Shown here one piece after another: positions 14,543-63,640 of a stretch of DNA of 64,000 bases. Below the pieces are notes generated by a model. That model was not told the origin of the DNA and searched no databases. It was given only the letters and a program-made list of their open reading frames with translations. This stretch comes from Candidatus Thorarchaeota archaeon (lineage in GTDB: Archaea > Asgardarchaeota > Thorarchaeia > Thorarchaeales > Thorarchaeaceae). Within the stretch, counting starts at the first letter, position 1. Every line of letters begins with the position of its first letter. The position numbers and the translations under genes were made by a program. The DNA is taken from the NCBI GenBank assembly GCA_018335335.1, contig JAGXKG010000001.1, positions 253,600 to 317,599 of the forward strand, written 5' to 3'.

Positions 14543-16360
14543 TTATAGTACTGTTACAGATTTGGCTAAGTTACGAGGTTTATCTGGATCATACCCCTTT
14601 CTTGTAGCCATGTAGTAGCTAAATAGCTGCAAAGGTATCACAAAAGGCATCACTGAAAACTCAGGCTCAATGCCTTGTGGAACTTGGAAAACGTGATCGG
14701 AAAGGTCCTTCAATTCTTCATCTCCTTTTTCAATCACTGAGATGATAGAAGCTCCTCTTGCTTTCATTTCCATGATATTCCCAACAAGCCTTTCCCTTGT
14801 TTGGTCTTTGGGGGCAACAAAAATGACCGGATATCCTTCTTCAACCAATGCTATTGGACCATGTTTCGATTCGCCTGCACTATAGGCTTCTGCGTGATTA
14901 TATGCAATTTCCTTCAGCTTAAGTGCGCCTTCTCTAGCTGTTGCTATAGATATACCACGCCCTAAGAATAGGAGACTTGGAGCATCATAATAGACTCCCG
15001 CTATGCTCCTTGCTTTTTCTTCTTCCGTAGCTATTACTGTAGATATTACATCGGGAATTTTTTCAAGAGATCTTTCCTTTCTCTCAATCAGTTTCTCACT
15101 TGAACCAGAGAAACGACCTAGCTCAATAGCAATCTGGGCCAACGCGGTTAATTGGACCATGAATGTCTTTGTAGCGGCCACTCCAATTTCCGGCCCTGCT
15201 TGCGTAATTATTGTATGATCCGCGACCCTCGTGATTGAGCTACCTACTACATTGGTCACTGCTATCACAGTTGAACCAAACTTCTTTGCATACTTGGCTG
15301 CGCTAACCGTATCAGTAGTTTCACCTGACTGAGTAATTGCCAATACTAGATCATCTTCAGACAAGGTATCATATATCGTGTCTTCAAAATCGCTTGCTAG
15401 CTCAAAAACCGGGACGATTTCTGACATCGATGCAAACATATGCTTACAGGCCATTCCTGCATGACCTGAAGTTCCCATCGCTATTACATAGATTCGCTCA
15501 GAATTGACAATCATTTCTCCCGCCTTCTCAATGGTTTCCTTGCGAATTCTGAGAGTGTTACGTACAGCGTCCGGCTGCTCATGAATTTCCTTCAGCATAA
15601 AATGTGGAAAACCCGCTTTCTCCGCTTGGTCCGCAGTCCAGCTGATTTTCACGGCATCCCTTTCAACTTCAGAACCATCAGAGAGTTTTTCGAGTTTTAT
15701 CTCCTCTGGAGTGATTATGGCAATTTCTCCATCCAATAAAAGAATCATATCTCTTGTCATAGGAAGAAAAGCTGGAATATCGGACGAGACATATGATGCG
15801 TCTTTTCCCTTCCCAATCACGAGTGGGTTTCCATCTCGTGTACAAACTATACGATCTGGTTCGTCTACTCTCATAGCTACTATCGCATATGTACCATTTA
15901 TTCTGGTCGTGACTTGAGCAACGGCTTCTTTCAAATCATAGCCCTGTTCAAGTAAATCTTCAATCATGTGAGGGATAACTTCTGTGTCTGTTTCCGATTT
16001 GAATTTATGGTTTTTCTTCAATTCTTTCCTTAATTTCATGAAGTTATCTATTACACCATTATGTACAACAGCAACTCTGTTATCACAATCAAAATGTGGG
16101 TGTGCGTTTAAAAGAGATGGAACCCCATGAGTCGCCCATCTGGTATGCCCTATTCCCATTCTTCCTGGTAAATCATCCAGATTCAGTCGTTTATGAACCT
16201 CGTCAATTTTTCCCTTGTCCTTCTTAGTGTGAAGCTTTCCTTCGTAGATGGTTGTTAAGCCTACTGAATCATACCCTCTATACTCCAGACGTTTCAATGC
16301 CTGATGAAGAAAAGGTGCAACTTCTCCACGTTTTTGGACGACACCTACTATACCACACAC
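14543..16360 (-). CDS. glmS: Glutamine--fructose-6-phosphate aminotransferase
   Basis: 605 aa; N-terminal MCGIVG class-II amidotransferase nucleophile; two SIS domains. Confidence 0.9.
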   Translation of the reverse strand: MCGIVGVVQKRGEVAPFLHQALKRLEYRGYDSVGLTTIYEGKLHTKKDKGKIDEVHKRLNLDDLPGRMGIGHTRWATHGVPSLLNAHPHFDCDNRVAVVHNGVIDNFMKLRKELKKNHKFKSETDTEVIPHMIEDLLEQGYDLKEAVAQVTTRINGTYAIVAMRVDEPDRIVCTRDGNPLVIGKGKDASYVSSDIPAFLPMTRDMILLLDGEIAIITPEEIKLEKLSDGSEVERDAVKISWTADQAEKAGFPHFMLKEIHEQPDAVRNTLRIRKETIEKAGEMIVNSERIYVIAMGTSGHAGMACKHMFASMSEIVPVFELASDFEDTIYDTLSEDDLVLAITQSGETTDTVSAAKYAKKFGSTVIAVTNVVGSSITRVADHTIITQAGPEIGVAATKTFMVQLTALAQIAIELGRFSGSSEKLIERKERSLEKIPDVISTVIATEEEKARSIAGVYYDAPSLLFLGRGISIATAREGALKLKEIAYNHAEAYSAGESKHGPIALVEEGYPVIFVAPKDQTRERLVGNIMEMKARGASIISVIEKGDEELKDLSDHVFQVPQGIEPEFSVMPFVIPLQLFSYYMATRKGYDPDKPRNLAKSVTVL

Positions 16361-16446
16361 GCTGAAATTCTCCTGATATCTTGTTGTTCAACTTCAAATA
16401 CTGAAGCCAGTGCGTATAAGAAGCTTCAATCCGGAAAAGATGTCTA

Positions 16447-16794
16447 TTAACCAGTAAGTTCTATTTCAATGTATACCGAATCCGGTATCTTTACACGCAT
16501 GATTTGTCTAATGGCTCTTTCGTCCGCATCAATATCAATCAAGCGTTTGTGGATTCTCATCTCCCATTTGTCCCAAGATTGAGAACCTTGTCCACACGGA
16601 GTCTTTCGCGTTGGAACAACCATTCTTCTAGTAGGTAAGGGAATGGGACCAGCCATGCGGACACCTGTCTTGCGGGTGATGCGCTTAATCTGACTGCATA
16701 CATCATCTAGATGTTCAGTACTCGTACTTGACAACCTTATTCTTGCTCTTTGTGACATTTGGAATCGCACCCGCTTGGTAGGTGTCTTTTCCAA
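16447..16794 (-). CDS. rps10: 30S ribosomal protein S10 (uS10)
   Basis: 115 aa; ARIRLSSTS...[24 protein letters not shown] typical uS10; not in the usual tuf operon context. Confidence 0.9.
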
Positions 16795-16909: not shown

Positions 16910-17701
16910 TTGAATGACCTAATAATTGTGAAGCTCGGCGGTTCAGTGATTACCAACAAAGGCGAATCACCCCCATCTGTCAACAACGATCGGATACATC
17001 GAATAGCACGCGAACTCGCCAATCACAATGGCCCTATGATAGCTGTGTTAGGTGGTGGGGCCCATGGTCATCAACCAGCCAGTCGCTATGGATTTGGCAA
17101 CCCTAAAACTCCAAGGCAAAAACGTTTGGCCGGTCTTCCCAAAATCCGGAACAATATGTCAATTCTTTCTTCGGAAGTAGTTGGCTCTTTGCAAGATTCG
17201 GGTCTGCCAGCTGTTGCCTTTCCACCTTTTACCTTTGCTCGTCTTAGGAATAACCACATCCAGCATTTCCCCTGTTCGTTCATAGAAAAGGCATTGAATT
17301 CCGATTTCCTCGTCGTCACTCATGGGGATGTATGTTTTGATGAAAAATTAGGAGCTTCCATATTGAGTGGAGATACGATTGTAGTATATTTGGCCAACAG
17401 ACTCAATCCAACGGGAGTTTACATCGGAACAGATGTTGATGGCGTCCATTATGAAAATCCTGATACTAATCCCAAGGCAAAAGTAATACCTGTAATACAA
17501 TCCAATGACATTGAAAAGGCCTTATCCAGCACTGGCCCATCTTCATCTGTGGATGTTACTGGTGGGATGGACAACAAAGTTAGGGAATTACTCACCATAA
17601 ATCAAAGAACAAAAATTGCCATATTCAATCTGAATATTGCTGGACGACTGTCTACTCTTCTAAAAGGTAAGACACCAATCTGTACACTCATTCAACCATG
17701 A
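16910..17701 (+). CDS. Isopentenyl phosphate kinase (amino-acid kinase family)
   Basis: 263 aa; KLGGS, VLGGGAHGH, THGD, LSGDTIVVYLAN, GTDVDGV, VDVTGGM motifs matching archaeal IPK. Confidence 0.85.
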   Translation: MNDLIIVKLGGSVITNKGESPPSVNNDRIHRIARELANHNGPMIAVLGGGAHGHQPASRYGFGNPKTPRQKRLAGLPKIRNNMSILSSEVVGSLQDSGLPAVAFPPFTFARLRNNHIQHFPCSFIEKALNSDFLVVTHGDVCFDEKLGASILSGDTIVVYLANRLNPTGVYIGTDVDGVHYENPDTNPKAKVIPVIQSNDIEKALSSTGPSSSVDVTGGMDNKVRELLTINQRTKIAIFNLNIAGRLSTLLKGKTPICTLIQP

Positions 17702-20700
17702 ACAAACTGCCTAAATTGGAAGAGATCCCTTCTTTCCAATACCTAATTGCTACATTATCTGGTATAGCATCATCATCTTCTATGATACTAGAATCTCCCA
17801 AGATACATACAACCTCATGTGTTTGACATTCATCACAAGCTGTTTCCGAAATTGAATTGGATATGCGTTTCATTCTGTTTTTTCCAGGTAATACCGCATA
17901 AGATTTGTCTCCTACACAAAAATCGAAAGGATAATGGTCCGACACAATCTCCCTTCCCCTTCTTTTCAATTCCTGCACAATAGCTTCCAAAGCTATTAAC
18001 TTGATACTTTGAAACTTCTTCGCTCCAAGCACCCAAAGACCTGGCTCCAAATTGTGTAAATTCGACTCCTTGCTCAATCTAAACAGATGACACTCCCCTG
18101 TCTCGATCATCTGGGAAAGGATTCGCATTCCTTCGCCTTTTTCCAATGGAATCGATCTTGCCCTTTTCGACTGAATGGCTGTTGTACTAATGAAACTGAG
18201 AAAATCCCCCCACTCAATTGCACCTCCAGAAACAGAAAGAAATTCCCTCAATAACCCAAACCAAATTCTTCTACCAACGCTTGTTCCCGATTTCTTGGTT
18301 GCCCCGTTGAACTGCTCCAAAGCCGACTCAATTTCGTGGCTCTTTTCCTTAGGCTCTTTCTCACCTATTTGAGAACCAGTGCACGTACTAAGCATTCTAT
18401 CAATTGAGCTCTGAAACGCAGGCACAATGGTTACCAAGTCGAATCCATCGATTTTTTCAATTCTTTCGCGAACTTTCGCTGCTGCAATGCTTCCTCTAAC
18501 TATAACATACAGCTCTTCAATTGTATTCCCCATTTTTTTCATACTTTCTTTGATTACATTGATTATTGTTTCAATAGATGGTATTCTAATCCGTTCAGGT
18601 ACTATCAAAATAGCGTTACTTCCCACAATAAAATTGGGTGTGGTTTCCGAACCATCATCTTCGAATCTTCGTATCTCATCCGACTTCTCAAGTATGTACT
18701 GCGATATTGCTGCTTCTATCGATTCGTTGGCGTTCCCCGGCACAGAGAATACAAAGCCTCCCTTAACGACAGGAATTGCTTCCCTCTGGATTATTGAGAG
18801 TGATATGAGCTCCTCGATTAGCTGCTCCCGTGTCATATCAATGTGGTCATAGTTGAGGTTCACCAACAACTCCTCCAATTGTTCTTTTGTTACAAAATCA
18901 CGAGATGCAAGATATCCGGTTACTAATCCAGATATTTCTCCTATGACATGTTCTCTTCCTTTTGATGTTCTTCCCCTTTCCACACAAACTCTCTCTTCCC
19001 CATCATGAGATACCATCATGGGAGTGTCATTGCATTCAACCCCCTCAATTATCTCTTCATCAACTCGATTGCGAATATGTGACGTAGATTCTTCCAGCCC
19101 ATATTCCGGCATCAACGTTTTGATTTCGAAGACACTCACATCTGGTAATTTGATCAAAGCATTGCCTACGGTGAGTGACTGCAAATACTCCTCCTGTCTA
19201 TCATCTAGAGAAAGATATCTTCTAGCAACCCCACTATCATACGGTAATCTAAAGGTAATTTTCGTGGAGGTATTGGCCAAAATATTCGATGATATATTGG
19301 GTCTTGTTGAAACCACCACGACACCCTGTCCAGTCGCTCTTTGAAGCATGACCATGGACTCTCCCGTTGTGACATCTGCGGCTGAACTTCTCGTGTAACT
19401 CTCGGGTACCAAATTGTAGGCCTCTTCAAGAACTACAATATGTCGAAGCCCTTCGGTTATACCTCTCTGCATGGCAGAATCAAAGACTCTTTTCACAATA
19501 ACGTTGTACAAGAGCCTCGCTGCATCCATGCCCCCAATCCGTGCTACATAGCTCAAGTCTACAATAACTCTTTCATCAAGTAGTGTTGAAATTTCCAACG
19601 TCTTTTTCCCAGGCCCAAAAACTGTAGCTAAGGGTTCCCTGAATAAGATTTGAAGCCGATTTAGCAATGCATCTCTAGTCATTTCGGAAATGTGGCCTTT
19701 AGTACCCGCAGCAAAAATCATTCGTTCAAGGGATGCCACTGTTTTCTCTTCCTCTTCTAGAACTACTTTTTCCACAGATTCTCGTAGAAGTCTTTCCATG
19801 GCGGGTGAAAGCTCTGCTGAAACACCCCTCTCGTTCAATAACTCTCTGATTATGGCGAAAGTGATATGTGCGTGTCTTTCGGGACTATCTCCTTCTGGCG
19901 CAAAAAGGTTGAGAACGAAATTATTTTCGGCACCAGGAATCAAAACATCAACGGACCCAAACCCTACCTCTCGAAGATCCGAATATTCAGAACCCTTTAC
20001 ATCGAATACTAACCATGGAATTTCCGTTTTGGCACTTAGCTCTGCAATGAGTCTCTTCACCAATGTGGTTTTCCCTGTACCTGTTGCCCCCATCACTGCT
20101 ATATGCTCTCTGAGCCAATCTTTCTTCAATCCAACCTCACTAAGACACCGAGAATTGAATACTGCCCGTCCGATTACTAACTCGTTGTTGATAGTCTCCT
20201 TTTCCGGAATAGAAAAGAATGGTACAGCCTTTCCTGTCACTACTGGCAGTTGCTGGGACGGTGTGTTGAAGTAACCAACAAGTCTCTCCAAATGTATTTT
20301 GGAGCTTTTCACAGGCCGCCTGTTCAATACTCGATAGCCGTTTCTACCTCCTAATTTTACCGATTCAAGTGAAAGATTCCCTTTTTCACCCCATATCGAT
20401 ATTAGAAGCCCCCTAACGCCTTCTTCAGCAAGCCTTAACTCAATTTGCGAGTTAGCTTGTATTGTTACGTAGATACTTGCTTCAAACCATGCATCAACAT
20501 CTCCAATTTCCTTGTACTCCTCCAGCAACCTCTCTTTCATAGCATGGTCAGAGAGTGACTCCCTCTTTTCACGCTCCTTTCTGCGAATCTTCTTCCAGTG
20601 TTTTTCCAATGCCCTTTTCTCTCTTCCAGGATTTGCGGGCTTAAATGCACAAGTCAGACTAGCATTGTAACCTTGTCTTAGAAGCCCTACTAGAAAAGTT

Positions 20701-21416
20701 CCTATCTGTGTCGCTTCTTCGTTAGGATTGATGCTCGGATTTCCAGCAACAACAATGATTTTCCTATGCGTTCCATCCCGGCTAGTTTTTTCTTGCCGCC
20801 TTGTTTCTAGATTCGGTTCACGCATGGTTTCAATAGCTTCTCTTAGTTCTCCCTCCCTCAATCTTTCTACCTCAACCGTATTGAGCGTGCTACGTAAGAT
20901 AGCTTCACATCTAGTAGATTCAATTTGGAGCTGTTGTCGCAAGCTTGTGACTGAATCTCCCCGTGCTGTTATGAATAGTCGGATGAAAGGCTCTTGGTTG
21001 ATAGTACCTACTTCATATGCCATAGACGTATAATCATCCATACCTTCACGAAGAGCAAGAAGTGCTGACACGACATACTTATGCTCTCCATTTTCGTTAA
21101 TCTTAACTGATCCAGTAACCGAATTGAGTTGAAGAACACAAGTTGCGACAATAGACCTATCCAGCTGTACAACAAGAATATCATTCTCTATCAACATCGA
21201 TATCTTCTGTGATTTGATTTTGGAACCTATTACGATACCTCCAGTAATCGGGGGAAATAGAAGAAGAAGACCTTCGACCAAGGCTCTCATAGGTACAGCT
21301 AATGGCGGCGCAACCCCTGTGATTGGCAAGACATAGGCCATTACAAAATAGAATATTGAAAATGCGGTTGAACTTGGCCATGCAATTCGTATGCACTTTA
21401 GAAACTTGACATCCAT
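17688..21416 (-). CDS. Giant membrane-anchored HerA/VirB4-like (DUF87) P-loop ATPase
   Basis: 1242 aa; two N-terminal hydrophobic helices; central Walker A IAVMGATGTGKTT and Walker B-like HIVVLEEAYNL as in HerA/VirB4/TrbE ATPases; ~450-aa C-terminal extension of unknown function. Confidence 0.6.
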   Translation of the reverse strand: MDVKFLKCIRIAWPSSTAFSIFYFVMAYVLPITGVAPPLAVPMRALVEGLLLLFPPITGGIVIGSKIKSQKISMLIENDILVVQLDRSIVATCVLQLNSVTGSVKINENGEHKYVVSALLALREGMDDYTSMAYEVGTINQEPFIRLFITARGDSVTSLRQQLQIESTRCEAILRSTLNTVEVERLREGELREAIETMREPNLETRRQEKTSRDGTHRKIIVVAGNPSINPNEEATQIGTFLVGLLRQGYNASLTCAFKPANPGREKRALEKHWKKIRRKEREKRESLSDHAMKERLLEEYKEIGDVDAWFEASIYVTIQANSQIELRLAEEGVRGLLISIWGEKGNLSLESVKLGGRNGYRVLNRRPVKSSKIHLERLVGYFNTPSQQLPVVTGKAVPFFSIPEKETINNELVIGRAVFNSRCLSEVGLKKDWLREHIAVMGATGTGKTTLVKRLIAELSAKTEIPWLVFDVKGSEYSDLREVGFGSVDVLIPGAENNFVLNLFAPEGDSPERHAHITFAIIRELLNERGVSAELSPAMERLLRESVEKVVLEEEEKTVASLERMIFAAGTKGHISEMTRDALLNRLQILFREPLATVFGPGKKTLEISTLLDERVIVDLSYVARIGGMDAARLLYNVIVKRVFDSAMQRGITEGLRHIVVLEEAYNLVPESYTRSSAADVTTGESMVMLQRATGQGVVVVSTRPNISSNILANTSTKITFRLPYDSGVARRYLSLDDRQEEYLQSLTVGNALIKLPDVSVFEIKTLMPEYGLEESTSHIRNRVDEEIIEGVECNDTPMMVSHDGEERVCVERGRTSKGREHVIGEISGLVTGYLASRDFVTKEQLEELLVNLNYDHIDMTREQLIEELISLSIIQREAIPVVKGGFVFSVPGNANESIEAAISQYILEKSDEIRRFEDDGSETTPNFIVGSNAILIVPERIRIPSIETIINVIKESMKKMGNTIEELYVIVRGSIAAAKVRERIEKIDGFDLVTIVPAFQSSIDRMLSTCTGSQIGEKEPKEKSHEIESALEQFNGATKKSGTSVGRRIWFGLLREFLSVSGGAIEWGDFLSFISTTAIQSKRARSIPLEKGEGMRILSQMIETGECHLFRLSKESNLHNLEPGLWVLGAKKFQSIKLIALEAIVQELKRRGREIVSDHYPFDFCVGDKSYAVLPGKNRMKRISNSISETACDECQTHEVVCILGDSSIIEDDDAIPDNVAIRYWKEGISSNLGSLFMVE

Positions 21417-21657
21417 GTATCAAGACACCCCACAGGCTTTCAAGTGTGTTTGCACTTCTTTCTCTCTCCGTTCTTGGTTCGAAGCTACATCTATCAGGTA
21501 ACCTGTTGAGATGTACCGTACTATGTAATATGAAGTCACCAAATAATCATGATATCAACATCTTTGCGCTAATTCCGTTTCCAGAAAAAGCATCTGCCCC
21601 TCGTTGTACGAGGTTAATAGAGCAGTGTCACAATATGAGTTGGGTTAGAATCTGGAA

Positions 21658-23658
21658 ATGTTGAGCAGTACATCTCAAGAAATCAGGATAAGTTTTGATT
21701 CAGTAGAATCAAGATTCGTTATGATAGTAGCTGTATTACTTTTCATCTTGCTGTCATACAATTCAGTTCCCGTCGCAGGAAGTGAAACTCCCTCTTTTGC
21801 TCGTGGCGAGAAGGTTACTATTGAATGCTACCTTCTTCAAAATGGAACGTACGGCGATCCAGTTCCTAACCAAAAGGTAGAATTCTTTGACCAATCGTAT
21901 GACACCTATATTGATTCATCAATAACCGACGAAAACGGTTTTGCATCTGTTCAATGGCAAATTCCGATTACCCATCCTTTGGGTGATACAATCCTTAACA
22001 TAACTTTCCGAGGGAACGAATCCTTGGCCCTTTCTCCATCAGTACAATGGACTGTTATTACTATACTATCATCTACTAATATCACACCAACCATTCATGA
22101 CACAAGTCTACATCCCTCTGATGTTCTCAATGTGTCTGTGAGACTGACTGACGACACTCGAACCCCTTTAAATTCTCAACTAATCAAGTTTTTGAGCGAT
22201 GGACAAACAATTCAATCTGGTTTCACGGATAATAATGGCTCATTCCAACTCCTTTTACAATGCAATCTATCCTGGGCTAATTTTGGTTACAATACAATCA
22301 ACATAATGTACAACGGAAATTCTACTCAATATCTTCAATCAAGTCATTCAAGTATTGGTTTTAATTTAGAGAAGAAGGCAACGAAACTCGCCATCTCAGA
22401 GAATAACACACTCTATAGCAAACTTAACGATACCCATCGTTTTTCTGTTACTCTATCATCAGGAGAAGAATTAGTAAGAAATGCAAGTATTGAGATTAGG
22501 ATTGACAATGAATATTATGACACCATATTCACTACAAGATTGGGTACAGCATTCGTAGATATCCAATTCAACGAGTCATTCACTCTAGGCCCTCATACAA
22601 TGAACGTACACTATCATGGCAGTGAACGTTATGAAGCATCGACTCTATTTCAAAAGATCATACTATCAAGCCCCTGTTTCATAGATGTTGCTGAGGAAAA
22701 AACTCTGACTGTAAATCTCCGTAATAGACTAACGGTAGAGTTACGCGACACTCTTAATCGTCCAATTCGAAGCGGGAATGTAACCATAACTGATACAATT
22801 TCAAGAAAGAATGTTTCTGGAATTCGGCAAGAAAACGGAATATATTCTTTTACTATTCTTTTGAGAAAAAAACTTGGGAGCCGAGAACTTCTGCTTCGCA
22901 TCTATGATATGCCCTACTTATCGAATCATACATATTCTTTCCAAGTTTATGTGTGGTCCAAGCCCGAATTCGAATTTCTATATTGTAGTACAATAGGATA
23001 TGCAGTACCTGGACAGACTATATCTCTCCTAATCTCATTAACTGATTTTTATGGTCCTATCGTCCACACTGAAGTTCAGATTCTGGTGAATAACAAGGAG
23101 TACGGAAAATCTCATAGTGATGGAAATGGTGAACTCTCTACCAGCATCACTATACCAAAAAAAGAAGGTCATCACTCCATTGCTTTGCATTATGGAGGAA
23201 ACAAATCTGCCTTCGTTCTAAATAGAACCCGAATTTTCAGAATTAACGCATCCCATAGCATCCCAGTTGTTCCATGGTCTATTTCAACCCGATTGATCCC
23301 CATGGAGAAGCGAATTTCTGTCAACATGATGCTGCTTGCCCTTAATGGCTCCAAAATTGAGGGTTTAAAGACTACTTACAACTGGCTAAATCAGAGTTAT
23401 CGCGCCAGAACATCAAAAAGCGGCTCATTGGAGTTTTATCTTAGGCTTCCTAATCATCCTGGTACTTATACTCTAGAATACCATATAGATTCAACTAGAG
23501 GAACAAAAGACTACGATGGTTTTCTCGAAATTGAAATAACGCTAATCGATATTAATGGTTCGAGTGTTTTTGGTTTGTTTCCTTTCACCTTATCCATAGC
23601 CTTCTCATTTTCATTAGTCTTGTTGCCGTCTCTCAGAAAAAGATATCTCTTAGGATAG
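21658..23658 (+). CDS. Secreted/surface glycoprotein with C-terminal transmembrane anchor
   Basis: 666 aa; N-terminal signal-like hydrophobic segment; >30 N-x-S/T sequons; C-terminal hydrophobic segment FGLFPFTLSIAFSFSLVLLP followed by basic tail RKRYLLG. Confidence 0.55.
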   Translation: MLSSTSQEIRISFDSVESRFVMIVAVLLFILLSYNSVPVAGSETPSFARGEKVTIECYLLQNGTYGDPVPNQKVEFFDQSYDTYIDSSITDENGFASVQWQIPITHPLGDTILNITFRGNESLALSPSVQWTVITILSSTNITPTIHDTSLHPSDVLNVSVRLTDDTRTPLNSQLIKFLSDGQTIQSGFTDNNGSFQLLLQCNLSWANFGYNTINIMYNGNSTQYLQSSHSSIGFNLEKKATKLAISENNTLYSKLNDTHRFSVTLSSGEELVRNASIEIRIDNEYYDTIFTTRLGTAFVDIQFNESFTLGPHTMNVHYHGSERYEASTLFQKIILSSPCFIDVAEEKTLTVNLRNRLTVELRDTLNRPIRSGNVTITDTISRKNVSGIRQENGIYSFTILLRKKLGSRELLLRIYDMPYLSNHTYSFQVYVWSKPEFEFLYCSTIGYAVPGQTISLLISLTDFYGPIVHTEVQILVNNKEYGKSHSDGNGELSTSITIPKKEGHHSIALHYGGNKSAFVLNRTRIFRINASHSIPVVPWSISTRLIPMEKRISVNMMLLALNGSKIEGLKTTYNWLNQSYRARTSKSGSLEFYLRLPNHPGTYTLEYHIDSTRGTKDYDGFLEIEITLIDINGSSVFGLFPFTLSIAFSFSLVLLPSLRKRYLLG

Positions 23659-23665
23659 GAATAAT

Positions 23666-23775
23666 TGGTGCTCCGGCCGGGACTTGAACCCGGGTCGGAG
23701 GATCGAGAGTCCCCCATGCTGGGCCGGACTACATTCGGTGGACTTAAGGCAAAGACCTTAGACTTCTACCGGAGC
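23666..23775 (-). tRNA. tRNA-Glu (anticodon CUC) with ~32-nt insertion near position 9/10; CCA encoded
   Basis: Acceptor GCUCCGG/CCGGAGC, anticodon arm GGGGA-CUCUCGA-UCCUC, T-arm CCGGG-UUCAAGU-CCCGG; D-arm AUGUAGUCCGGCCCAGCAU matches archaeal tRNA-Glu; extra AGAAGUCUAAGG...CCACCGA between acceptor and D-arm. Confidence 0.7.
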
Positions 23776-23976
23776 TTCTTAGCACCAGCTCGGAGCGGGA
23801 CAGCACCATTTTGAGCTCAAATAAGCCTTTCTCAACGGCATTTGGTTTTCATAGTCGATTCTTAATAACCACTGCTCTAATACTCCCATTTGTGACATCT
23901 GCAAAGAATCTTTGTATTTACAAGGAGGAAGTGGAAAAATGGTGGAGAGATACCTTCAGTCAAACCCATCAAATTG

Positions 23977-24204
23977 TTAGGGATTCAACAGATTTGATAA
24001 ATTACTCCAACTGTCTTCCAATAATCCAAGCAGATCTGAGATGACATCTTGAGCCCATCCAGTAGCTTGAAGTATAACTGCAATTACGATAGAAACGGTA
24101 ACTACTGCTATTCCCAACAATAGACTCTCTTCAACAAGCGGGCCACCTGTAGTATCTTGCAGAGGGTTGCTTCTTCCTGTCATTATCAACATTCTCAATA
24201 GCAA
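23977..24204 (-). CDS. Small membrane protein, possible Flp/class-III-signal pilin-like
   Basis: 75 aa; ...TTGG-PLVEES-LLLGIAVVTVSIVIAVIL: Gly followed by acidic residues then a ~22-aa hydrophobic helix, like Flp-pilin G/xxxxEY...hydrophobic; directly downstream of a TadA/FlaI-type ATPase. Confidence 0.3.
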   Translation of the reverse strand: MLLRMLIMTGRSNPLQDTTGGPLVEESLLLGIAVVTVSIVIAVILQATGWAQDVISDLLGLLEDSWSNLSNLLNP

Positions 24205-24379
24205 GTTGTTAATGTGCTATTTTAACCCAACAGAGACGGATTATTCTATCCATATTTCAAAATTATGATTTTCTTGAAAATAGTCAATTTTCTTCGGTTC
24301 CACAATTCACCAATGAGAGTGTGTCTCAACATCGACCGTGATCAAGAATCTCCCCCGCAACCGAAACATAGATTCTTCT

Positions 24380-26050
24380 TTATAGCTCTCCGAGGATTCG
24401 TGGCCAATCATCATGATATCCGCTTATTAACACTTCAAGATTCTCTTCAATTGAAACCTCATTGTTCTTAGAAATATCGTTTTCATCTGGTTTGAGAATG
24501 TTAGTGTGATTTAATTTTCCATTCTTCTCATAGAGAATGGTCAAACCGTCAAAAACGATCAAACCATTTTTTCTTATACGTTGAATCTTCGCCACCTCTG
24601 CAACATATCGTTCCGAAACACCTGGCTCTCTCTGTTTCATTGTAATTACCAAATCCATCATTGCAATCTCGTGTTCACTAATTCCATGTGAATCTCTCCA
24701 ACGCGATATCAAACATGATGAGTTTCTACTATGGCAGGTTTGGATTGTTCGTAGCCCGGCCGCTATTGCTTGAAAAAGAGCTGAACTATGCTCGGCTGTC
24801 TGAATTTCTCCAAGAATCATGTAATCTGGAGAGCGATGTAGGCATTTGACGATTTCATTGGTCTTGCTCAGCCCTGCTTTACCCTCATCATAAGGTGGAA
24901 CCCTGAATCTTGTCTGTTTATGATTCGCCCATAGACGACTTTCAATTACATCCTCAATATACAGTTTCCGCCAGTGGGGAGGAGTCATCATATCAAGGGC
25001 ATTTAGCAGAGTAGTTTTTCCACTGCCTGGCTCACCAGTAATTGTTATGTTTGCTCTTCCACGTATAGCTGATATCAGAAAAGCAGCAATTCCTATTGTT
25101 AGGGTTCCATTCTTCAAGAGATCTACAACGGTAAACGGATTTGAGCGTGCACGCCTAATTTCTAGGGTTAGTCCATCTGGGCTTAATGGAGGAATAGCAG
25201 CGGATACCCGCAAGAGTACATCGGCAAGTCCAATTTCGGTCTTCAATGATGGATTGTTATGATCGAGATGGAAGTTACTCTCAGCGCGTACCAAAGTCAT
25301 GAAACGATTGACATCCTCATTGCTAAAGGTAACTTCGGTATCACAACGTCCTAGTCGACAATGATCGAAATAGATATGGGCCCCTGGTCTACTCAAGAAT
25401 ATCTCCTCAACCTCCTCATCAAACAGTAGGGGGAAGATAGGTGCGAGAATAGATTTGCGATGAGCAACGATGTGTGATATTCGTGTTTTCGTGTCGTCAT
25501 TCATTTCAGGAATAATCTCAGAAAGATTTTCAAGGATGATCTCCTTTTCGCTAGTTAACCGTTCATTCAAACCTCCCCTTACAAAGGGGCTATCCCTTTC
25601 TATTTGAGGAAACTCCATACAAACCTCCTCAAACAAGGAATGTTCGAGCGGCGTTCTTAGCATTGGTATTGCATGATGAACTGGTACATTGCTATGATTA
25701 TCTCTAACGAAATATACTAGATACGCTCCTACTCGATATACATCCACAATTTCTGATGAAGAAAGACACATGCTTTCGCCCAAATATGCGGGATCCCATT
25801 CCTTTGTTAACCAAGGTGGCCCTTTCACTTGTTTCGTATTCGAAGGCGCAAGATGAATATACCCCCTCTCAGTTTCAAGTATCACTAAACGAGCATCACA
25901 TTCTTTCTGTTCTTTCCATTGCTGGATTCTCTGACATTTTCCATTTCTGTGACTTTCACATTCAACACAACGGGTTTCAGGACATTCTAGTAGCTCTACA
26001 TCCTGCCTGTTTCTTACCATTCTCTTCTTGCCAACTGTTTCCGAACCCAT
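24380..26050 (-). CDS. Secretion-superfamily ATPase (FlaI/PilB/VirB11/TadA family) with N-terminal Cys-rich zinc-ribbon
   Basis: 556 aa; Walker A TGEPGSGKTTLLNAL, Asp box IEDVIE, RSPDYMILGEIQTAE (= RxxPDxIxxGEiR), His-box-like TCHSRN; N-terminal CPETRCVECESHRNGKC. Confidence 0.75.
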   Translation of the reverse strand: MGSETVGKKRMVRNRQDVELLECPETRCVECESHRNGKCQRIQQWKEQKECDARLVILETERGYIHLAPSNTKQVKGPPWLTKEWDPAYLGESMCLSSSEIVDVYRVGAYLVYFVRDNHSNVPVHHAIPMLRTPLEHSLFEEVCMEFPQIERDSPFVRGGLNERLTSEKEIILENLSEIIPEMNDDTKTRISHIVAHRKSILAPIFPLLFDEEVEEIFLSRPGAHIYFDHCRLGRCDTEVTFSNEDVNRFMTLVRAESNFHLDHNNPSLKTEIGLADVLLRVSAAIPPLSPDGLTLEIRRARSNPFTVVDLLKNGTLTIGIAAFLISAIRGRANITITGEPGSGKTTLLNALDMMTPPHWRKLYIEDVIESRLWANHKQTRFRVPPYDEGKAGLSKTNEIVKCLHRSPDYMILGEIQTAEHSSALFQAIAAGLRTIQTCHSRNSSCLISRWRDSHGISEHEIAMMDLVITMKQREPGVSERYVAEVAKIQRIRKNGLIVFDGLTILYEKNGKLNHTNILKPDENDISKNNEVSIEENLEVLISGYHDDWPRILGEL

Positions 26051-26210
26051 TACTTTTCACATCAAGATACAAATCAATATTAGCTACTTCTCGCGTTCCG
26101 AAATTGAGTCACAGATGATCCCAGTTCCACCCCTCGGTTTTTTGCTACCAATTTAAGCCCCCTGTCGAATTAAGAAATTAGTTTTGAGTTAGAATTAGTG
26201 ATTGGAGTTT

Positions 26211-27236
26211 CTACTGACTTGTTATCCTAATACATTTCTTGATTACTCCGAAATGATCCCGAATACTATATTCTGCTACATCGGTTGCTTCAGAAGTGAG
26301 TTTCTGTGTAAGTGCTGATTGTTTTCCTGCTTTGACAGATATGACTCTGTCAGCGGCATAGGCTGCGGACACAGCAAAAATAAATGGATTTCTGCCACCT
26401 CTTCTTGAGGATGGAAATCCCCTTAAAATCGTCATTAGAATTTCCCTCAACTTGTTTTCGTATTCCTTTAATTCCCAGCCTCTTGATTGAACCCTCTCAA
26501 CTACTTCTGAATTATTCATCAACATAGATAGTATTCTAGGCACATATTCCCTCGGCTTCCGAATCCTTGGAACATAGCCGGTTGCTGACCGAAGATTAAT
26601 CGCTTCCCTGACTATGGTCCGAACACTGACTCTGTGACCACATTTATCGAAGGTTTCTGCTATCTCCTCGAGTGTTATGGGCGCCTCTTCTTTGAATTCT
26701 CTAACGGCCATGAGAAGACAAACTGCAATCAAAATGATATTGTTAGTCATCTTGTCTTCTGCTTCGTTCACCAGTTTCTTGTACAAGTAGGCGGTTCGAT
26801 TTCGAACCTGTTCGCTTATCATCAGGAGCTTAGAAACGCGATTGAGCGTTCTCAGTGCTCGATACTTAGCTTCATCGTCCCCTATTCTGATTCTAGTGCT
26901 ATATACACTCTTCAAACGTTGGAATTTCTTCTGGACTTTTCCTGATAATGCACTTCCTTTAGAATCACGGAAATACTTGTCTCTGTGAAATCCAATATAG
27001 CTTCCCAATCCATCTACTATATGCATTCTATTTCCTAACGATACATACATCGCCGCATCGGGGCTATCATCTGACTTCTGTTGCCCCATCTGATAAGTCG
27101 GATCTACGTATTCTCTTGATACTACTAGTCCACAGTCTAGACAGACGATATACCCCTCACTTGTTGCGAGAGCACCAGAACAATCGGGACAGGTACCAAG
27201 AAGCTCTCGATATGAATCAGCGGAATTGTCTGTCAA
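26211..27236 (-). CDS. tfb: Transcription initiation factor IIB (TFB)
   Basis: 341 aa; N-terminal Zn ribbon CPDCSG...CLDCG, B-reader, two cyclin-like repeats. Confidence 0.9.
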   Translation of the reverse strand: MTDNSADSYRELLGTCPDCSGALATSEGYIVCLDCGLVVSREYVDPTYQMGQQKSDDSPDAAMYVSLGNRMHIVDGLGSYIGFHRDKYFRDSKGSALSGKVQKKFQRLKSVYSTRIRIGDDEAKYRALRTLNRVSKLLMISEQVRNRTAYLYKKLVNEAEDKMTNNIILIAVCLLMAVREFKEEAPITLEEIAETFDKCGHRVSVRTIVREAINLRSATGYVPRIRKPREYVPRILSMLMNNSEVVERVQSRGWELKEYENKLREILMTILRGFPSSRRGGRNPFIFAVSAAYAADRVISVKAGKQSALTQKLTSEATDVAEYSIRDHFGVIKKCIRITSQ

Positions 27237-27502
27237 CGCGTTATACCCGATTATATCCTGTGTAGTCTATTCCCTTTTGGATTTCACAACTTCTTTGTAT
27301 GGAGAAGACAATAGATTATACATTCAATCATATCTCTACTTACCAACTACCAGTCAGATACGGCCTACTGGGAATGGGGGCAACCCGAAACTATTCTCCA
27401 AAAAATCCTGATCCTACGAAAGACACGAGCTACCAAGGTTATTCTAGTGAAAAAACAAAGCCGCTTCAAATGTTCTCGATTTGTCTTCTTTCCCCTAACT
27501 CC

Positions 27503-27895
27503 TTACGAAATAGCAATATAGAACTCTTCTGATTCAAATGATCGTCTCTCAGTTGAAGAAGCTCCCTTAATACTAATCACCATTCTTAATCCTCCAATAG
27601 AACCTACCACCCTTAGATCCTCATTGCCTTTCATTTTGAAAATCGTGCCTTTGGCATAGATACTGGACTGGCTCCCCCTCTTTGTTTCTCTTGGCGAGAT
27701 GTGCACATCTACGGGTTCTTCTGAATCTAGTGTCTCACAAAGCACCTCTGGCAACTCAAGAGTGAGTTTTGCTTCCCCTTCACGTGAAGAAATCTCCAAA
27801 AGCCTTAGATTCTTTGTTTCAGTTTCTTCCATTGATTCAATTTTGGCATTTTCAAGTTTAACAACCATATCCAGAGCTCTCCATAATAGAGACAA
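27503..27895 (-). CDS. Hypothetical acidic protein (130 aa)
   Basis: ORF only; acidic, mixed alpha/beta-looking; no motif recognised. Confidence 0.35.
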   Translation of the reverse strand: MSLLWRALDMVVKLENAKIESMEETETKNLRLLEISSREGEAKLTLELPEVLCETLDSEEPVDVHISPRETKRGSQSSIYAKGTIFKMKGNEDLRVVGSIGGLRMVISIKGASSTERRSFESEEFYIAIS

Positions 27896-27983
27896 ATAAT
27901 CCTCGTTTGGGTCTGAATTAAACTTGTCGTTAGCAGCTTGTGGTCTTTTTTAGAGAGCATACAAACCAATTACAGGTGAAACA

Positions 27984-30656
27984 ATGCGAGTCAAGCTCCT
28001 GCTATCCGTTCAAATATCATGTCTTGTCCTTCTAGCTTTCGTTATGCCAGTTTCAGCCTTCTATTTTCAACTTGATTACTTCCAGACAGATCAGCTGGTT
28101 TATGAAGTGGGAGAAACCATTGAAATGGCCGCCAAGCTTACTGCAGATTTTGGAAGTGATGGTTGGTGTTATGTTTCATTTACTGTGTCTGAAGATTCAC
28201 GACAAATCTACGAAGACGCCTATTTCATTCCTCCTTCTCCCGAACCAAGAGTTCTTCAGTCTTCTTTTGTATTAACGTCCAATACCGTTTCACCAGGTAT
28301 GAATGGCAGTACTGGACATGCGATGTTTGATGTTGAAATGTATGACAAGTACACTCATGGTGAAAGTGAAACCATTCAAATCAACTTTACAAGAGGCGAG
28401 CTATTGGCTTCACCAATCAATCCACTCGAATTCGAATATGGATTGAATCATACATTTGTATTCAAATTAGGATCTAGATACAATCAGGACGTGTTTGAGG
28501 ATGACGTTCCCGTTATGGCAAATCTATATGACTCTGGCAATCGATGTGTTGGCAACTGGTTACCGTCAGTAAATGCCACCGGCCATATCCATTTCGACCT
28601 CAATAATGCAAGTCTTCCGACAGGGGATTACAACTTACGTCTAGAAACTAATGGTACTGATTCATTTGTTCCTTTCTCTAATTCATTTATTGTGTCTATT
28701 TTACCTGCAAACTCCTCACTTACTGTTCTATCTGCAGACTCATCTGTATACTGTCTATCTTCTGACGGAACACATTCCGATTCTGCAAATATAGTTGTTC
28801 AACATCTTAATGGAGAAAACAACCCAATCACTGATAGCTCACTTACATGGTCAACCGCCTTTTCAAGCGGAACAATGAACTCCCTACAGGATGGCAAATA
28901 TAACTGTTCCATTCCCTTTGAAGTTGCTCCTGGTAACTATAGCATCATTATTCATGCAACCAATCCAAGCTATACGTCTGTAAATGTGAGCTTGATAATC
29001 GAAGCTGAAACTCGCCCTATTGACTTTAATATTTCACTAAAAGATAAGGCGCTGGCAGGAAAAAGTGTTGAATTCATCTTATCTGTCCAGGATTTGTTGG
29101 CTAATGAAAACGTGGCAAACCATCCTCTTTTCTTAGAGCTAATGAACAACAACTACTCCATATCTACACCTTTGTTATATACAAACGAATCCGGGATTTT
29201 GTGTTACAACTTCTCGATTCCCCAAGAAATGTGGGGTTCAAGCTCTCTTTTCATCATCTCTAATGAATCAGCATTCTATACTAACAACAACTTCTCCCAT
29301 AGTTTCACTATCTATTATCTTCCCATCATTATAACACAAAATGTGACACAGGCTTTTTTGGATAGCGAAATAGCAATGAATACAACAGTCTTAAATCCAC
29401 TCTATATGCCCGTTTCCGAAATTCAGATTGTAGTAACCGATTGTCGAAACAATACTTTGACGACGGCTTTCACTGACCTCGAAGGCATAGCTAACCTCAG
29501 CTGGAGAGTGAACTCATCCTACTCAACTGGCCCATATGATTTTTGCTTTCACTTAGCATCTTCCCCCGCCAAGTATTCTGAAGAACGAATGTACTGGCAT
29601 ACAATCAATCTCTACCACCCACTAGTTTTCAATTTACAGAATCATTCTCTAGAAACTCTTAGGAACTCAACTTTGACCTTCTCCTTTCAAGTAGATTCTG
29701 AGAATACATATTCTACTTCCGTCGACATTCTACTAACCAACTATGATATCCGTTGCAATCTATCAATCGAAATCTCTACGAGTTCAGCGAAAAATGCAAG
29801 CTTGAAAATACCCACCAATATTTCTTTAGGCCCACACCAAATCAGTTATGAATCGCTCAACACAAGCTACAAGTTCAGAAATCCTTCCTATTTCACTTTG
29901 ATAGTAATAGAAAAAATGAATGCAAGCTGTTCGGATTTTCAAGCTACGTATAACAATGAACTATCATTTGACCTGCTAACGGTTGATTGGGATAATACAA
30001 GCATATCTACAGTGTATGTTACTGCAGAAATTGGAGGGGTACGGATTGCAACCAACATCTTGGCAAACCTGACTCAAACTCCCAACGTTCAAATCAGCTT
30101 GCCTTTGCGTCTTCCTCCGGGACAGCATCAGCTTTTGTTAAATGTTTGTCACCCTTATCGAGTCAATCAGACTATATCTACACAGATAGTCATATGGATG
30201 GAGACACGTATTACAATTACTACACTCGAAGTTCAAGAATTATATGCATCATCTCCTGCTATAACTCAGGATACTCTACGCAATATCTCAGATGGATCTA
30301 TCACGCGCCCTCCACCAATCTTTCTCAATGGCTCCACATCAACTACCCCTTCAGTTGCCCGAGACACCTCTCGACTCAATTGTCCTAAGCTCAGCTCAGG
30401 AACCAATAGTTGTTCTACTGTGGATGCAAAATCCAAAACCTCATCATCCGGGAATGGCCAGACTGTTCTAAGCCTCAGAGATTTTAATGAAGATTGTTCA
30501 TGGTTTTCTGCAATTACTTGTTCTACTGTTCTTGAAGTACACCCAAATGAGATTATGCCCCATTCCGCTTTCTCAGGACCTGTGACGACCGTGTCTTTCA
30601 GAAAATGGGAGTTATTCCTGATTTTCGTAGTTATTCGCCGAACCAACTCATCATGA
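27984..30656 (+). CDS. Large secreted surface glycoprotein (3' end uncertain; real gene probably ends before ~30266)
   Basis: 890-aa ORF; signal peptide MRVKLLLSVQISCLVLLAFVMPVSA; very dense N-x-S/T sequons; last ~130 codons are low-complexity and antisense to korA, so likely read-through. Confidence 0.5.
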   Translation: MRVKLLLSVQISCLVLLAFVMPVSAFYFQLDYFQTDQLVYEVGETIEMAAKLTADFGSDGWCYVSFTVSEDSRQIYEDAYFIPPSPEPRVLQSSFVLTSNTVSPGMNGSTGHAMFDVEMYDKYTHGESETIQINFTRGELLASPINPLEFEYGLNHTFVFKLGSRYNQDVFEDDVPVMANLYDSGNRCVGNWLPSVNATGHIHFDLNNASLPTGDYNLRLETNGTDSFVPFSNSFIVSILPANSSLTVLSADSSVYCLSSDGTHSDSANIVVQHLNGENNPITDSSLTWSTAFSSGTMNSLQDGKYNCSIPFEVAPGNYSIIIHATNPSYTSVNVSLIIEAETRPIDFNISLKDKALAGKSVEFILSVQDLLANENVANHPLFLELMNNNYSISTPLLYTNESGILCYNFSIPQEMWGSSSLFIISNESAFYTNNNFSHSFTIYYLPIIITQNVTQAFLDSEIAMNTTVLNPLYMPVSEIQIVVTDCRNNTLTTAFTDLEGIANLSWRVNSSYSTGPYDFCFHLASSPAKYSEERMYWHTINLYHPLVFNLQNHSLETLRNSTLTFSFQVDSENTYSTSVDILLTNYDIRCNLSIEISTSSAKNASLKIPTNISLGPHQISYESLNTSYKFRNPSYFTLIVIEKMNASCSDFQATYNNELSFDLLTVDWDNTSISTVYVTAEIGGVRIATNILANLTQTPNVQISLPLRLPPGQHQLLLNVCHPYRVNQTISTQIVIWMETRITITTLEVQELYASSPAITQDTLRNISDGSITRPPPIFLNGSTSTTPSVARDTSRLNCPKLSSGTNSCSTVDAKSKTSSSGNGQTVLSLRDFNEDCSWFSAITCSTVLEVHPNEIMPHSAFSGPVTTVSFRKWELFLIFVVIRRTNSS

Positions 30657-31554: not shown

Positions 31555-31655
31555 GCGGCCGTGGTCTAGCATGGTTAGGACTGAAGCTTCCCAAGCTTCC
31601 GACCCGAGACGGGAATGCAATTTCCGCGGGAATTCAAATCCCGGCGGCCGCACCA
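31555..31655 (+). tRNA. tRNA with 23-24-nt insertion in variable/T region; best reading tRNA-Gly (CCC); CCA encoded
   Basis: Canonical 5' half: acceptor GCGGCCG/CGGCCGC, U8, D-arm GUCU-AGCAUGGUUA-GGAC, anticodon arm GAAGC-UUCCCAA-GCUUC; 3' T-loop UUCAAAUCCCGG present; an extra segment with direct repeat CGGGAAU and a second hairpin (CGGGA-AUGCAAU-UUCCG, GCA) lies between. Confidence 0.6.
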
Positions 31656-40646: not shown

Positions 40647-40751
40647 GGGTCGGTAGTCTAGCTTGGTATCTACCTGAGACTATCAGGTAGCCAAACTGAT
40701 TCATGCTTGGGGTGCATGAGACCGCGTGTTCAAGTCACGCCCGGCCCACCA
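40647..40751 (+). tRNA. tRNA-Pro (anticodon GGG) with ~26-29-nt insertion in the D-arm region; CCA encoded
   Basis: Acceptor GGGUCGG/CCGGCCC; canonical 3' half CAUGC-UUGGGGU-GCAUG, var AGACC, T-arm GCGUG-UUCAAGU-CACGC; 5' part has 48 nt where ~19 expected; AUCA-GGUAGCCAAAC-UGAU can form the D-arm after removing GUCUAGCUUGGUAUCUACCUGAGACU. Confidence 0.7.
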
Positions 40752-63552: not shown

Positions 63553-63640
63553 GCGGAGGTTACCAAGCCAGGCCAAAGGTGCGGGACTTAGGATCCCGTC
63601 TCGTAGGAGTCCGCGAGTTCAAATCTCGCCCTCCGCACCA
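63553..63640 (+). tRNA. tRNA-Leu (anticodon UAG), class II, no intron, CCA encoded
   Basis: Acceptor GCGGAGG/CCUCCGC, D-arm GUUACCAAGCCAGGCCAAAGGUG, anticodon loop CUUAGGA, long variable arm UCUCGUAGGAGUC, T-arm GCGAG-UUCAAAU-CUCGC. Confidence 0.85.

Follow-up and report, generated by a model that had tools for sequence, protein, structure and literature searches.

The locus raises the question of whether a tRNA gene that is interrupted close to its 5' end is a working gene with an intron and, if so, where the intron begins and ends and how its boundaries could be recognised. The window, i.e., the whole stretch of 64,000 nucleotides that was analysed, is part of a contig of Candidatus Thorarchaeota and carries on its minus strand (23775..23666) a complete tRNA-Glu(CUC), which is split near the 5' end by exactly 32 nt. 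The 5' acceptor strand is a perfect complement of the 3' strand, displaced 32 nt further upstream. The gene is very probably a functional tRNA-Glu(CUC) with a 32-nt intron of the bulge-helix-bulge (BHB) type at G10|U11, which would be excised by the splicing endonuclease. Upstream of it lies a conserved leader motif, for which a role in the folding of the precursor appears possible.

Anatomy and detection of the gene

The minus-strand sequence, taken 5' to 3' between 23775 and 23666, reads GCUCCGG-UAG / AAGUCUAAGGUCUUUGCCUUAAGUCCACCGAA / U-GUAGUCCGGCCCAGCAU-G-GGGGA-CUCUCGA-UCCUC-CGAC, continued through 23666 by CCGGG-UUCAAGU-CCCGG-CCGGAGC-A-CCA. It consists of three parts:

23766..23775, minus strand: 5' exon, nt 1-10 (GCUCCGGUAG), with acceptor strand 1-7, U8, A9 and G10, as given by ARAGORN on the spliced form
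23734..23765, minus strand: intron of 32 nt at site 10/11 (AAGUCUAAGGUCUUUGCCUUAAGUCCACCGAA); its in-silico removal yields tRNA-Glu(ctc), and the site is shared by orthologues
23666..23733, minus strand: 3' exon, nt 11-76, with U11, the rest of the D-arm, the CUC arm, the T-arm, the 3' acceptor strand, A73 and CCA

The exon junction predicted for the spliced tRNA is GCUCCGGUAG|UGUAGUCCGG. The joined exons provide 7/7 acceptor pairs, a D-arm, the anticodon loop CUCUCGA, a T-arm and an encoded CCA, and the cloverleaf features include U8, A14, G18-G19, the T-arm CCGGG-UUCAAGU-CCCGG, a 7-bp acceptor stem and a 7-nt anticodon loop. The molecule belongs to the tRNA family (Rfam RF00005), isotype Glu, anticodon CUC. 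An earlier, sequence-only reading of this DNA had named the same isotype and anticodon, which was borne out by ARAGORN on the spliced sequence and by the intact exons. It had also described the insertion as about 32 nt long; the length is 32 nt exactly, and removal restores a 78-nt tRNA call. Its statement that all arms are intact apart from the insertion holds, except for the "A" with which the D-arm was said to start (AUGU...), since this is the last base of the intron. Its guess at a host of the Asgard type was a good one: an adjoining 556-aa ATPase of the T2SS/T4P type agrees at 100% identity with a protein from a 448-kb contig of a Candidatus Thorarchaeota MAG, and the genome matches are Thorarchaeota.

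The gene escapes standard finders. With the unspliced 110 nt ARAGORN made no tRNA call, even in intron mode, and after in-silico removal of the 32 nt it reported a 78-nt tRNA-Glu(ctc); over the whole window it reported only a tRNA-Leu at 63553. Rfam at the gathering threshold gave no match in the whole window. Once the threshold was relaxed, a match of 28.5 bits to the tRNA model of Rfam appeared at 23735-23677, limited to model positions 9-63 (gathering score 29). Two intronless CUC orthologues with identical exons scored 59.1 and 60.5 bits against the same gathering score of 29. Since ARAGORN and Rfam (at the gathering score) miss the gene, knowledge of the intron is useful mainly for annotation. 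An ORF of 49 aa (23665-23814, plus strand) lies antisense over the entire tRNA-Glu gene and is almost certainly spurious; automatic gene callers could report it instead of the missed tRNA.

The six nearest ORFs (17688-30656) code for a HerA-like ATPase, an Ig-repeat protein, a T2SS/T4P ATPase, a weakly TFIIB-like protein, an MG2-domain protein and one protein without a Pfam match. No link to the tRNA-Glu gene was evident, and none of the six is a splicing endonuclease or an RtcB-type ligase. In relatives the cluster keeps its gene order, the split tRNA-Glu included, at 72-85% identity. It contains a DUF87/HerA-like ATPase of 1242 aa, an Ig-repeat surface protein of 666 aa and an MG2-domain protein of 890 aa, and may represent a secretion or pilus-type module. 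The protein of 341 aa (26211-27236, minus strand) has only sub-threshold matches to a TFIIB zinc ribbon and a TFIIB repeat and looks like a divergent TFB-like factor; its position is conserved in the relatives L001 and L004. A PYLIS_3 match in Rfam (16407-16510, minus strand; 25 bits, gathering score 38) was dismissed as a chance match; it falls within the gene for ribosomal protein S10 (16447-16794), beside glmS (14543-16360).

Conservation, junction and splice motif of the intron

Orthologous loci were first reached via homologues of the ATPase with 85% and 72% identity, and the contigs carrying these homologues share both the gene order and the split tRNA-Glu. A scan for the D-arm string GTAGTCCGGCCCAGCAT, with one genome per GTDB species, matched at least 120 stretches; the matches listed were mostly from Thorarchaeota, with one from Hermodarchaeota, several from unclassified "Promethearchaeota" MAGs and some chance bacterial ones. 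At least 90 distinct tRNA-Glu genes could be parsed, of which at least 63 contained an insert of 26-36 nt at the shared site and at least about 27 did not. An insert at the same site in at least 63 distinct orthologues from Thorarchaeota and related Asgard archaea is not a matter of chance. On the complete Thorarchaeota chromosome CP070658.1, the intron-bearing gene L050 was the sole CUC match listed, besides one intronless UUC gene (L023); the window gene is probably also the only tRNA-Glu(CUC) of its genome. Further introns were seen in related Asgard archaea, namely in the T-loop and the variable region of tRNA-Glu(UUC) genes (L043, L054, L094) and in tRNA-Pro genes (L199, L191, L229), some of which carry two (e.g., L199, over 130 nt). 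They illustrate the richness in introns of these lineages.

The position is non-canonical, as had been noticed from the sequence, i.e., 10/11 and not 37/38. The insertion had been placed between nt 9 and 10, and this assignment has to be shifted by one base. By itself the window sequence permits 8/9, 9/10 (both of which leave A9 A10 in the product) or 10/11 (A9 G10). All intronless relatives, with UUC or CUC anticodons, read GCYCCGG-U(A/G)GU-GUAG, i.e., N9 G10 U11 (at least about 27 distinct genes). The intron-bearing genes (at least 63 distinct ones) always have GGU(A/G)G plus one variable base on the 5' side and CCG-NN-UGUAG on the 3' side, where NN is AG, AA, AU, UA, UG, AC, CC or UU; the second N, if taken as exon position 10, would in many cases not form a pair with U25. 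In the canonical case at 37/38, each 3-nt bulge of a BHB motif has a 4-bp helix on its 5' side and is cut between its second and third base. Applied to the window gene, this rule places the cuts after G10 and before U11; applied to the tRNA-Pro of the lineage, it gives the junction which is known independently from intronless genes. On sequence comparison the junction is thus G10|U11, by three agreeing lines: the intronless relatives, the variable NN and the geometry of the BHB motif.

The elements of the motif are:

23768..23771, minus strand: 5' strand of helix H, C5 G6 G7 U8 (acceptor bases and U8), from local fold and RNAalifold
23736..23739, minus strand: intron bases ACCG, the 3' strand of helix H, with the 3' bulge A-A|U11 after them, from local fold and RNAalifold
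23741..23763, minus strand: inner intron hairpin h', from local fold

The central helix H of 4 bp, formed by C5-U8 and the intron bases ACCG, is paired at 4/4 positions in 63/63 orthologues among the matches listed, and in RNAalifold it is the sole consensus helix of the 5' part (paired in 61/61). Its intron strand varies only by A->G and C->U, so that wobble pairs are kept; over the 61 genes, G-C is changed to G-U in 2 cases and U-A to U-G in 17. Two 3-nt bulges flank the helix, in the window gene A9-G10|A on the 5' side and A-A|U11 on the 3' side, and cuts within them would rebuild the mature tRNA, G10|U11 being the sequence of the intronless relatives. Folding around the junctions, which the sequence-only reading had named as a check, gave a motif at 10/11 and none at 9/10.

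An inner hairpin h' is present in all introns and is imperfect in the window copy, where an AxC mismatch is followed by G-C, UxU, C-G, U-A, a bulged A, A-U, A-U, G-C and G-C and by the loop UCUUUG. In L001, the closest orthologue among the matches listed, h' is a perfect stem of 9 bp. The minimum free energy of the inner hairpin against shuffles had a mean z-score of -3.64 over 61 introns, with 92% below -1.64, and the hairpin is kept despite sequence divergence (median pairwise identity of the 61 introns, 0.5). A strict register, with a 3-nt 5' bulge and the hairpin abutting bulge and helix H, was found in 24 of 63 genes, the others being offset by 1-3 bases. The window copy is among the looser motifs: its 5' "bulge" is actually a 4x1 internal loop, and in the thermodynamic optimum of its 5' half G10 and the first intron base are paired. 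The strict hBHBh' form, the substrate of alpha4 and alpha'2 endonucleases, has directly at the 3' bulge an outer helix h with two or more base pairs. Here only C4-G12 could pair next to that bulge, and in the folds C2 pairs with G12 and G1 with U13, beyond a 2x3 loop; without a stable outer helix, the motif is therefore classed as relaxed HBh' and not as strict hBHBh'.

In the pathway which we propose, exon bases C5-U8 of the precursor would pair with the intron ACCG to form the 4-bp central helix, and the middle of the intron would form the inner hairpin. The tRNA splicing endonuclease, presumably the Asgard (alpha-beta)2 enzyme with its L1 loop of broad specificity, would then cut after the second base of each bulge, and an RNA ligase would join G10 to U11, yielding a normal tRNA of 78 nt including CCA.

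An intron at 9/10 (or at 8/9, with the same product), which would give a mature tRNA with A10, is improbable. The ambiguity of the window sequence by one or two bases would allow it, and ARAGORN accepts the product spliced at 9/10 as a tRNA-Glu with an A10-U25 pair, but every intronless relative listed has G10, and the would-be position 10 is A, G, U or C among the relatives, with U or C breaking the 10-25 pair. A cut after A9 would also need a helix of C4-G7 (CCGG) with CACC, which does not form, whereas a cut after G10 gives a perfect helix in 63/63 genes among the matches listed. Even less credible is a tRNA-Glu pseudogene inactivated by a random insertion of 32 nt. That standard finders miss the gene and that the inner hairpin of the window copy is imperfect could be expected of such a relic; against this stand the intact exons, the conserved promoter (see below), the recurrence of insert, 4-bp helix and hairpin at one and the same site in 63 or more distinct genes of numerous Asgard species, and the chromosome CP070658.1, in which the intron-bearing L050 is the only CUC match listed. 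That the mature tRNA retains the 32 nt, as an additional arm separating acceptor stem and D-stem, can hardly be believed at all, since the arm would part G10 from U11 within the D-stem, bears the hallmarks of an endonuclease substrate and is precisely absent from close relatives. An intron at G10|U11 is thus the preferred reading. Kept in dozens of species-level genomes, it is an old and stable non-canonical intron, and with its precise loss in several lineages it should be a good marker for intron gain and loss.

Three of the four tRNA genes of the window are split, at three different non-canonical sites (10/11, 21/22 and 53/54). The other two are:

40647-40751, plus strand: tRNA-Pro(GGG), with a 28-nt intron (40669-40696) between A21 and U22 in the D-loop
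31555-31652, plus strand: tRNA-Gly(CCC), with a 24-nt intron (31609-31632) at 53/54, the junction of T-stem and T-loop

The tRNA-Pro insertion had been reported from the sequence to lie at the same place as that of tRNA-Glu; fold and comparative data put it at 21/22 instead. Its local fold has H = UUGG/CCAA, the bulge U-A|U and a hairpin of 8 bp. In a metagenome scan with the 5' part of tRNA-Pro (at least 120 stretches), the large majority read ...GGUA-UGAU... without interruption, and several tRNA-Pro genes among the matches listed also have an intron at 21/22, with H' = CCAA, CCAG or CUAA. An insert after base 9, with the D-arm AUCAG...CUGAU, contradicts the relatives and lacks a BHB motif. 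The mistake is understandable, since the intron has a 3' half that looks like a D-arm; ARAGORN accepts both splice models, and the comparative data decided for 21/22. In tRNA-Gly(CCC), detected in the permissive Rfam scan, 31 nt take the place of the 7-nt T-loop. The local fold shows a clean motif (H CCCG/CGGG, a 3-nt bulge and a hairpin of 6-7 bp), and the T-stem of the spliced form has an A52xC62 mismatch.

The conserved leader and its possible role in folding

Two conserved elements were found upstream of the gene:

23785..23796, minus strand: leader motif GCUCCGAGCUGG (family GCUCCGG-R-CUGG), 21 nt upstream of tRNA +1, from conservation footprint and predicted pairing
23818..23833, minus strand: putative archaeal promoter, a BRE rich in purines (GAGAAAG) and, after it, the TATA box GCTTATTTG, conserved in orthologues

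The TATA box of the window lies at 23825-23818 (minus strand). A promoter-like block, GAAAGSCTTATTTG, precedes the intron-bearing tRNA-Glu(CUC) genes (window, L001, L003, L006-L121), and the 12-mer GCUCCGG-R-CUGG follows it after 21-25 nt, 19-25 nt upstream of tRNA +1. The 12-mer is near-invariant in 61 of 62 intron genes, with varying flanks; each position carries 1.5-2 bits of information, except for the variable R with 1.1, and the flanks mostly have less than 0.7 bits. Positions 11-12, which were not used for locating the motif, are conserved at 100% and 97%. Bases 1-7 repeat the 5' acceptor strand of the tRNA itself (in the window copy as GCUCCGA), and the CUGG part complements C20a-G22 of the D-arm (CCAG). 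In the standard geometry of archaeal promoters the TATA box is centred near -26, and transcription would be expected to start within about 3 bases of the first G of the leader motif. The intronless tRNA-Glu(UUC) served as a yardstick: its TATA box (TTAATAA) ends 27-28 nt before the mature 5' end, a spacing which implies a leader of a few bases only.

A second upstream copy of the acceptor strand was seen in 68 cases among 228 tRNA-like 3' ends, and 59 of the 68 were tRNA-Glu(CUC); the remaining ones were mostly AT-rich chance matches. No such copy was found in about 100 tRNA-Pro genes, whose introns lie elsewhere and do not use acceptor bases.

A splice helix made from acceptor bases raises the question of how the endonuclease can see the motif: helix H uses acceptor bases 5-7, and helix H and acceptor stem are thus mutually exclusive. 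Without the leader, the 110-nt precursor folds with a normal acceptor stem and without helix H; in partition functions averaged over 62 genes, the probability was 0.89 for the acceptor stem and 0.11 for helix H. When the native leader was included, mean values were 0.96 for pairing of the leader with the 3' strand, 0.003 for the true acceptor stem and 0.72 for helix H (0.93 in the window gene). Shuffled leaders gave intermediate values (acceptor stem 0.44, helix H 0.41). Pairing of leader CUGG with CCAG had a mean P of 0.62 in per-sequence ensembles. On 50 full precursors, RNAalifold joined leader positions 1-6 to the 3' acceptor strand. When the pre-splicing model was applied to the alignment of these 50 precursors, 98% of the cells were paired for leader and 3' strand, 99% for CUGG:CCAG and 100% for H, compared with 25-58% for slid controls.

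The leader copy would offer a testable answer. The transcript would start with a leader resembling the 5' acceptor strand as well as a part of the D-stem, and this leader would hold the 3' acceptor strand and the CCAG of the D-arm. The real bases 5-8, freed from the acceptor stem, would be available for the intron, and their pairing with it would display the splice motif. Maturation would then run from splicing through refolding to removal of the leader by RNase P. That the leader acts in this way, as a built-in decoy enabling helix H in the tRNA-Glu(CUC) precursor, is a tentative hypothesis to which we give somewhat less than an even chance, conservation being its support; compensatory covariation is lacking since the partners of the leader in the tRNA are invariant. 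After in-silico splicing the leader was still predicted on the 3' strand (P 0.875), and the decoy model therefore needs tertiary folding or the pull of RNase P; persistent pairing of leader and 3' strand would hinder RNase P unless tertiary folding wins.

Several other pairings and models for the leader were considered. RNAalifold also proposed a competing helix of leader RCUGG with exon CCGGU, which would block helix H; as the main pairing it was rejected (P 0.09 against 0.62 for CUGG:CCAG) and is kept as a minor alternative, also disfavoured by the invariant leader U10, which fits A21 as a partner better than G6. Pairing of leader CCGGACU with AGUCCGG of the D-loop had an ensemble probability of about 0.003 and was rejected. 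A C/D-box guide RNA in the leader was discarded, there being no C box, CUGG being no D box and the upstream part probably being untranscribed. In a two-intron model, with the leader copy as the true 5' exon, no BHB motif could be drawn (CUCC against CUCC), and the window copy GCUCCGA would spoil the 7-66 pair.

The decoy has to be weighed against a leader that is unrelated to splicing. Such a leader could be an initiator, a promoter-proximal element or a site where a protein binds, or else a relic copy of the 5' end that is retained for another purpose, e.g., to control the processing of the 5' or 3' end. We hold a leader unrelated to splicing to be an even bet. The location at the predicted transcription start, the lack of compensatory covariation and the competition with the true acceptor strand that would persist after splicing all agree with it, but to our knowledge a near-invariant block of 12 nt goes far beyond the known archaeal initiator signals, and conservation is found exactly where the leader is complementary (1-7 with the 3' acceptor strand, 9-12 with CCAG), including the U10 that fits A21. 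All four lineages of intronless CUC genes are altered at otherwise invariant leader positions (GCUUCGGACUCG, GCUCCGGGUGG, a decayed form, or absence of the motif), as would be expected of an element tied to the intron, yet the L027 lineage has kept most of the motif, recognisable at the same distance. The lack of an acceptor-strand copy in the tRNA-Pro genes mentioned above speaks again for a connection with splicing. A literature search for a leader decoy device in pre-tRNA found no description. If the decoy model is true, the leader would be a cis-acting RNA device which makes an intron in the acceptor/D-region processable and fixes the order of maturation, and thus a new way to steer the folding of pre-tRNA.

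Comparison with known systems

For Crenarchaeota/Thermoproteales, relaxed HBh' introns at non-canonical positions have been compiled (Marck & Grosjean 2003; Sugahara 2008; both cited through PMC4090602). The tRNA-Glu(CUC) intron resembles them in being short and outside 37/38, in its 4-bp helix of exon and intron bases and its inner hairpin without an outer helix, in the 3-nt bulge cut after the second base, and in exons which rebuild a standard cloverleaf. It differs in its host, an Asgard archaeon (Thorarchaeota), in its location inside the D-stem with a helix from acceptor bases 5-7 and U8, and in being kept across a class-level lineage and not sporadically. Position 10/11 is absent from the intron positions given in the review PMC4090602, to which the comparison is confined. 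Since HBh' introns are known in Thermoproteales and have been reported in Asgard archaea, the tRNA-Glu(CUC) intron belongs to a known kind.

According to the literature, relaxed motifs are cut only by endonucleases of the (alpha-beta)2 or epsilon2 type that carry a specific loop. For Asgard archaea an (alpha-beta)2 EndA with the L1 loop is reported, in a survey whose tRNA predictions included Thorarchaeota SMTZ1-83 (PMC5829648). From Atabeyarchaeia and Freyarchaeia, two other Asgard lineages, tRNA introns at non-canonical sites, also several per gene, are reported in abundance (PMC11291895). As far as the accessible parts of these two reports go, the present gene shares with theirs the superphylum, the many non-canonical introns and (alpha-beta)2 EndA as the inferred processor; the introns of tRNA-Glu(CTC) in Atabeyarchaeia sit elsewhere in the gene, unlike the one at 10/11, and no description of the 10/11 intron or of the leader element was found in those parts. 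Taken alone, the intron is one more case of the intron-rich tRNA genes of Asgard archaea; the interest lies in the class-wide conservation of the 10/11 intron together with the copy of the acceptor strand in the leader.

For the leader, the nearest likeness is with the split tRNAs of Nanoarchaeum equitans and with permuted tRNAs, in which pairing of leader and trailer sequences creates the BHB substrate (PMC4090602). In these systems, as would be the case here, sequence outside the mature tRNA builds a structure required by the endonuclease, in cis or in trans. There, the extra sequences form a helix beside the cut sites; the leader proposed for Thorarchaeota would act away from the cut sites, replacing the 5' acceptor strand and so freeing the real one for the splice helix.
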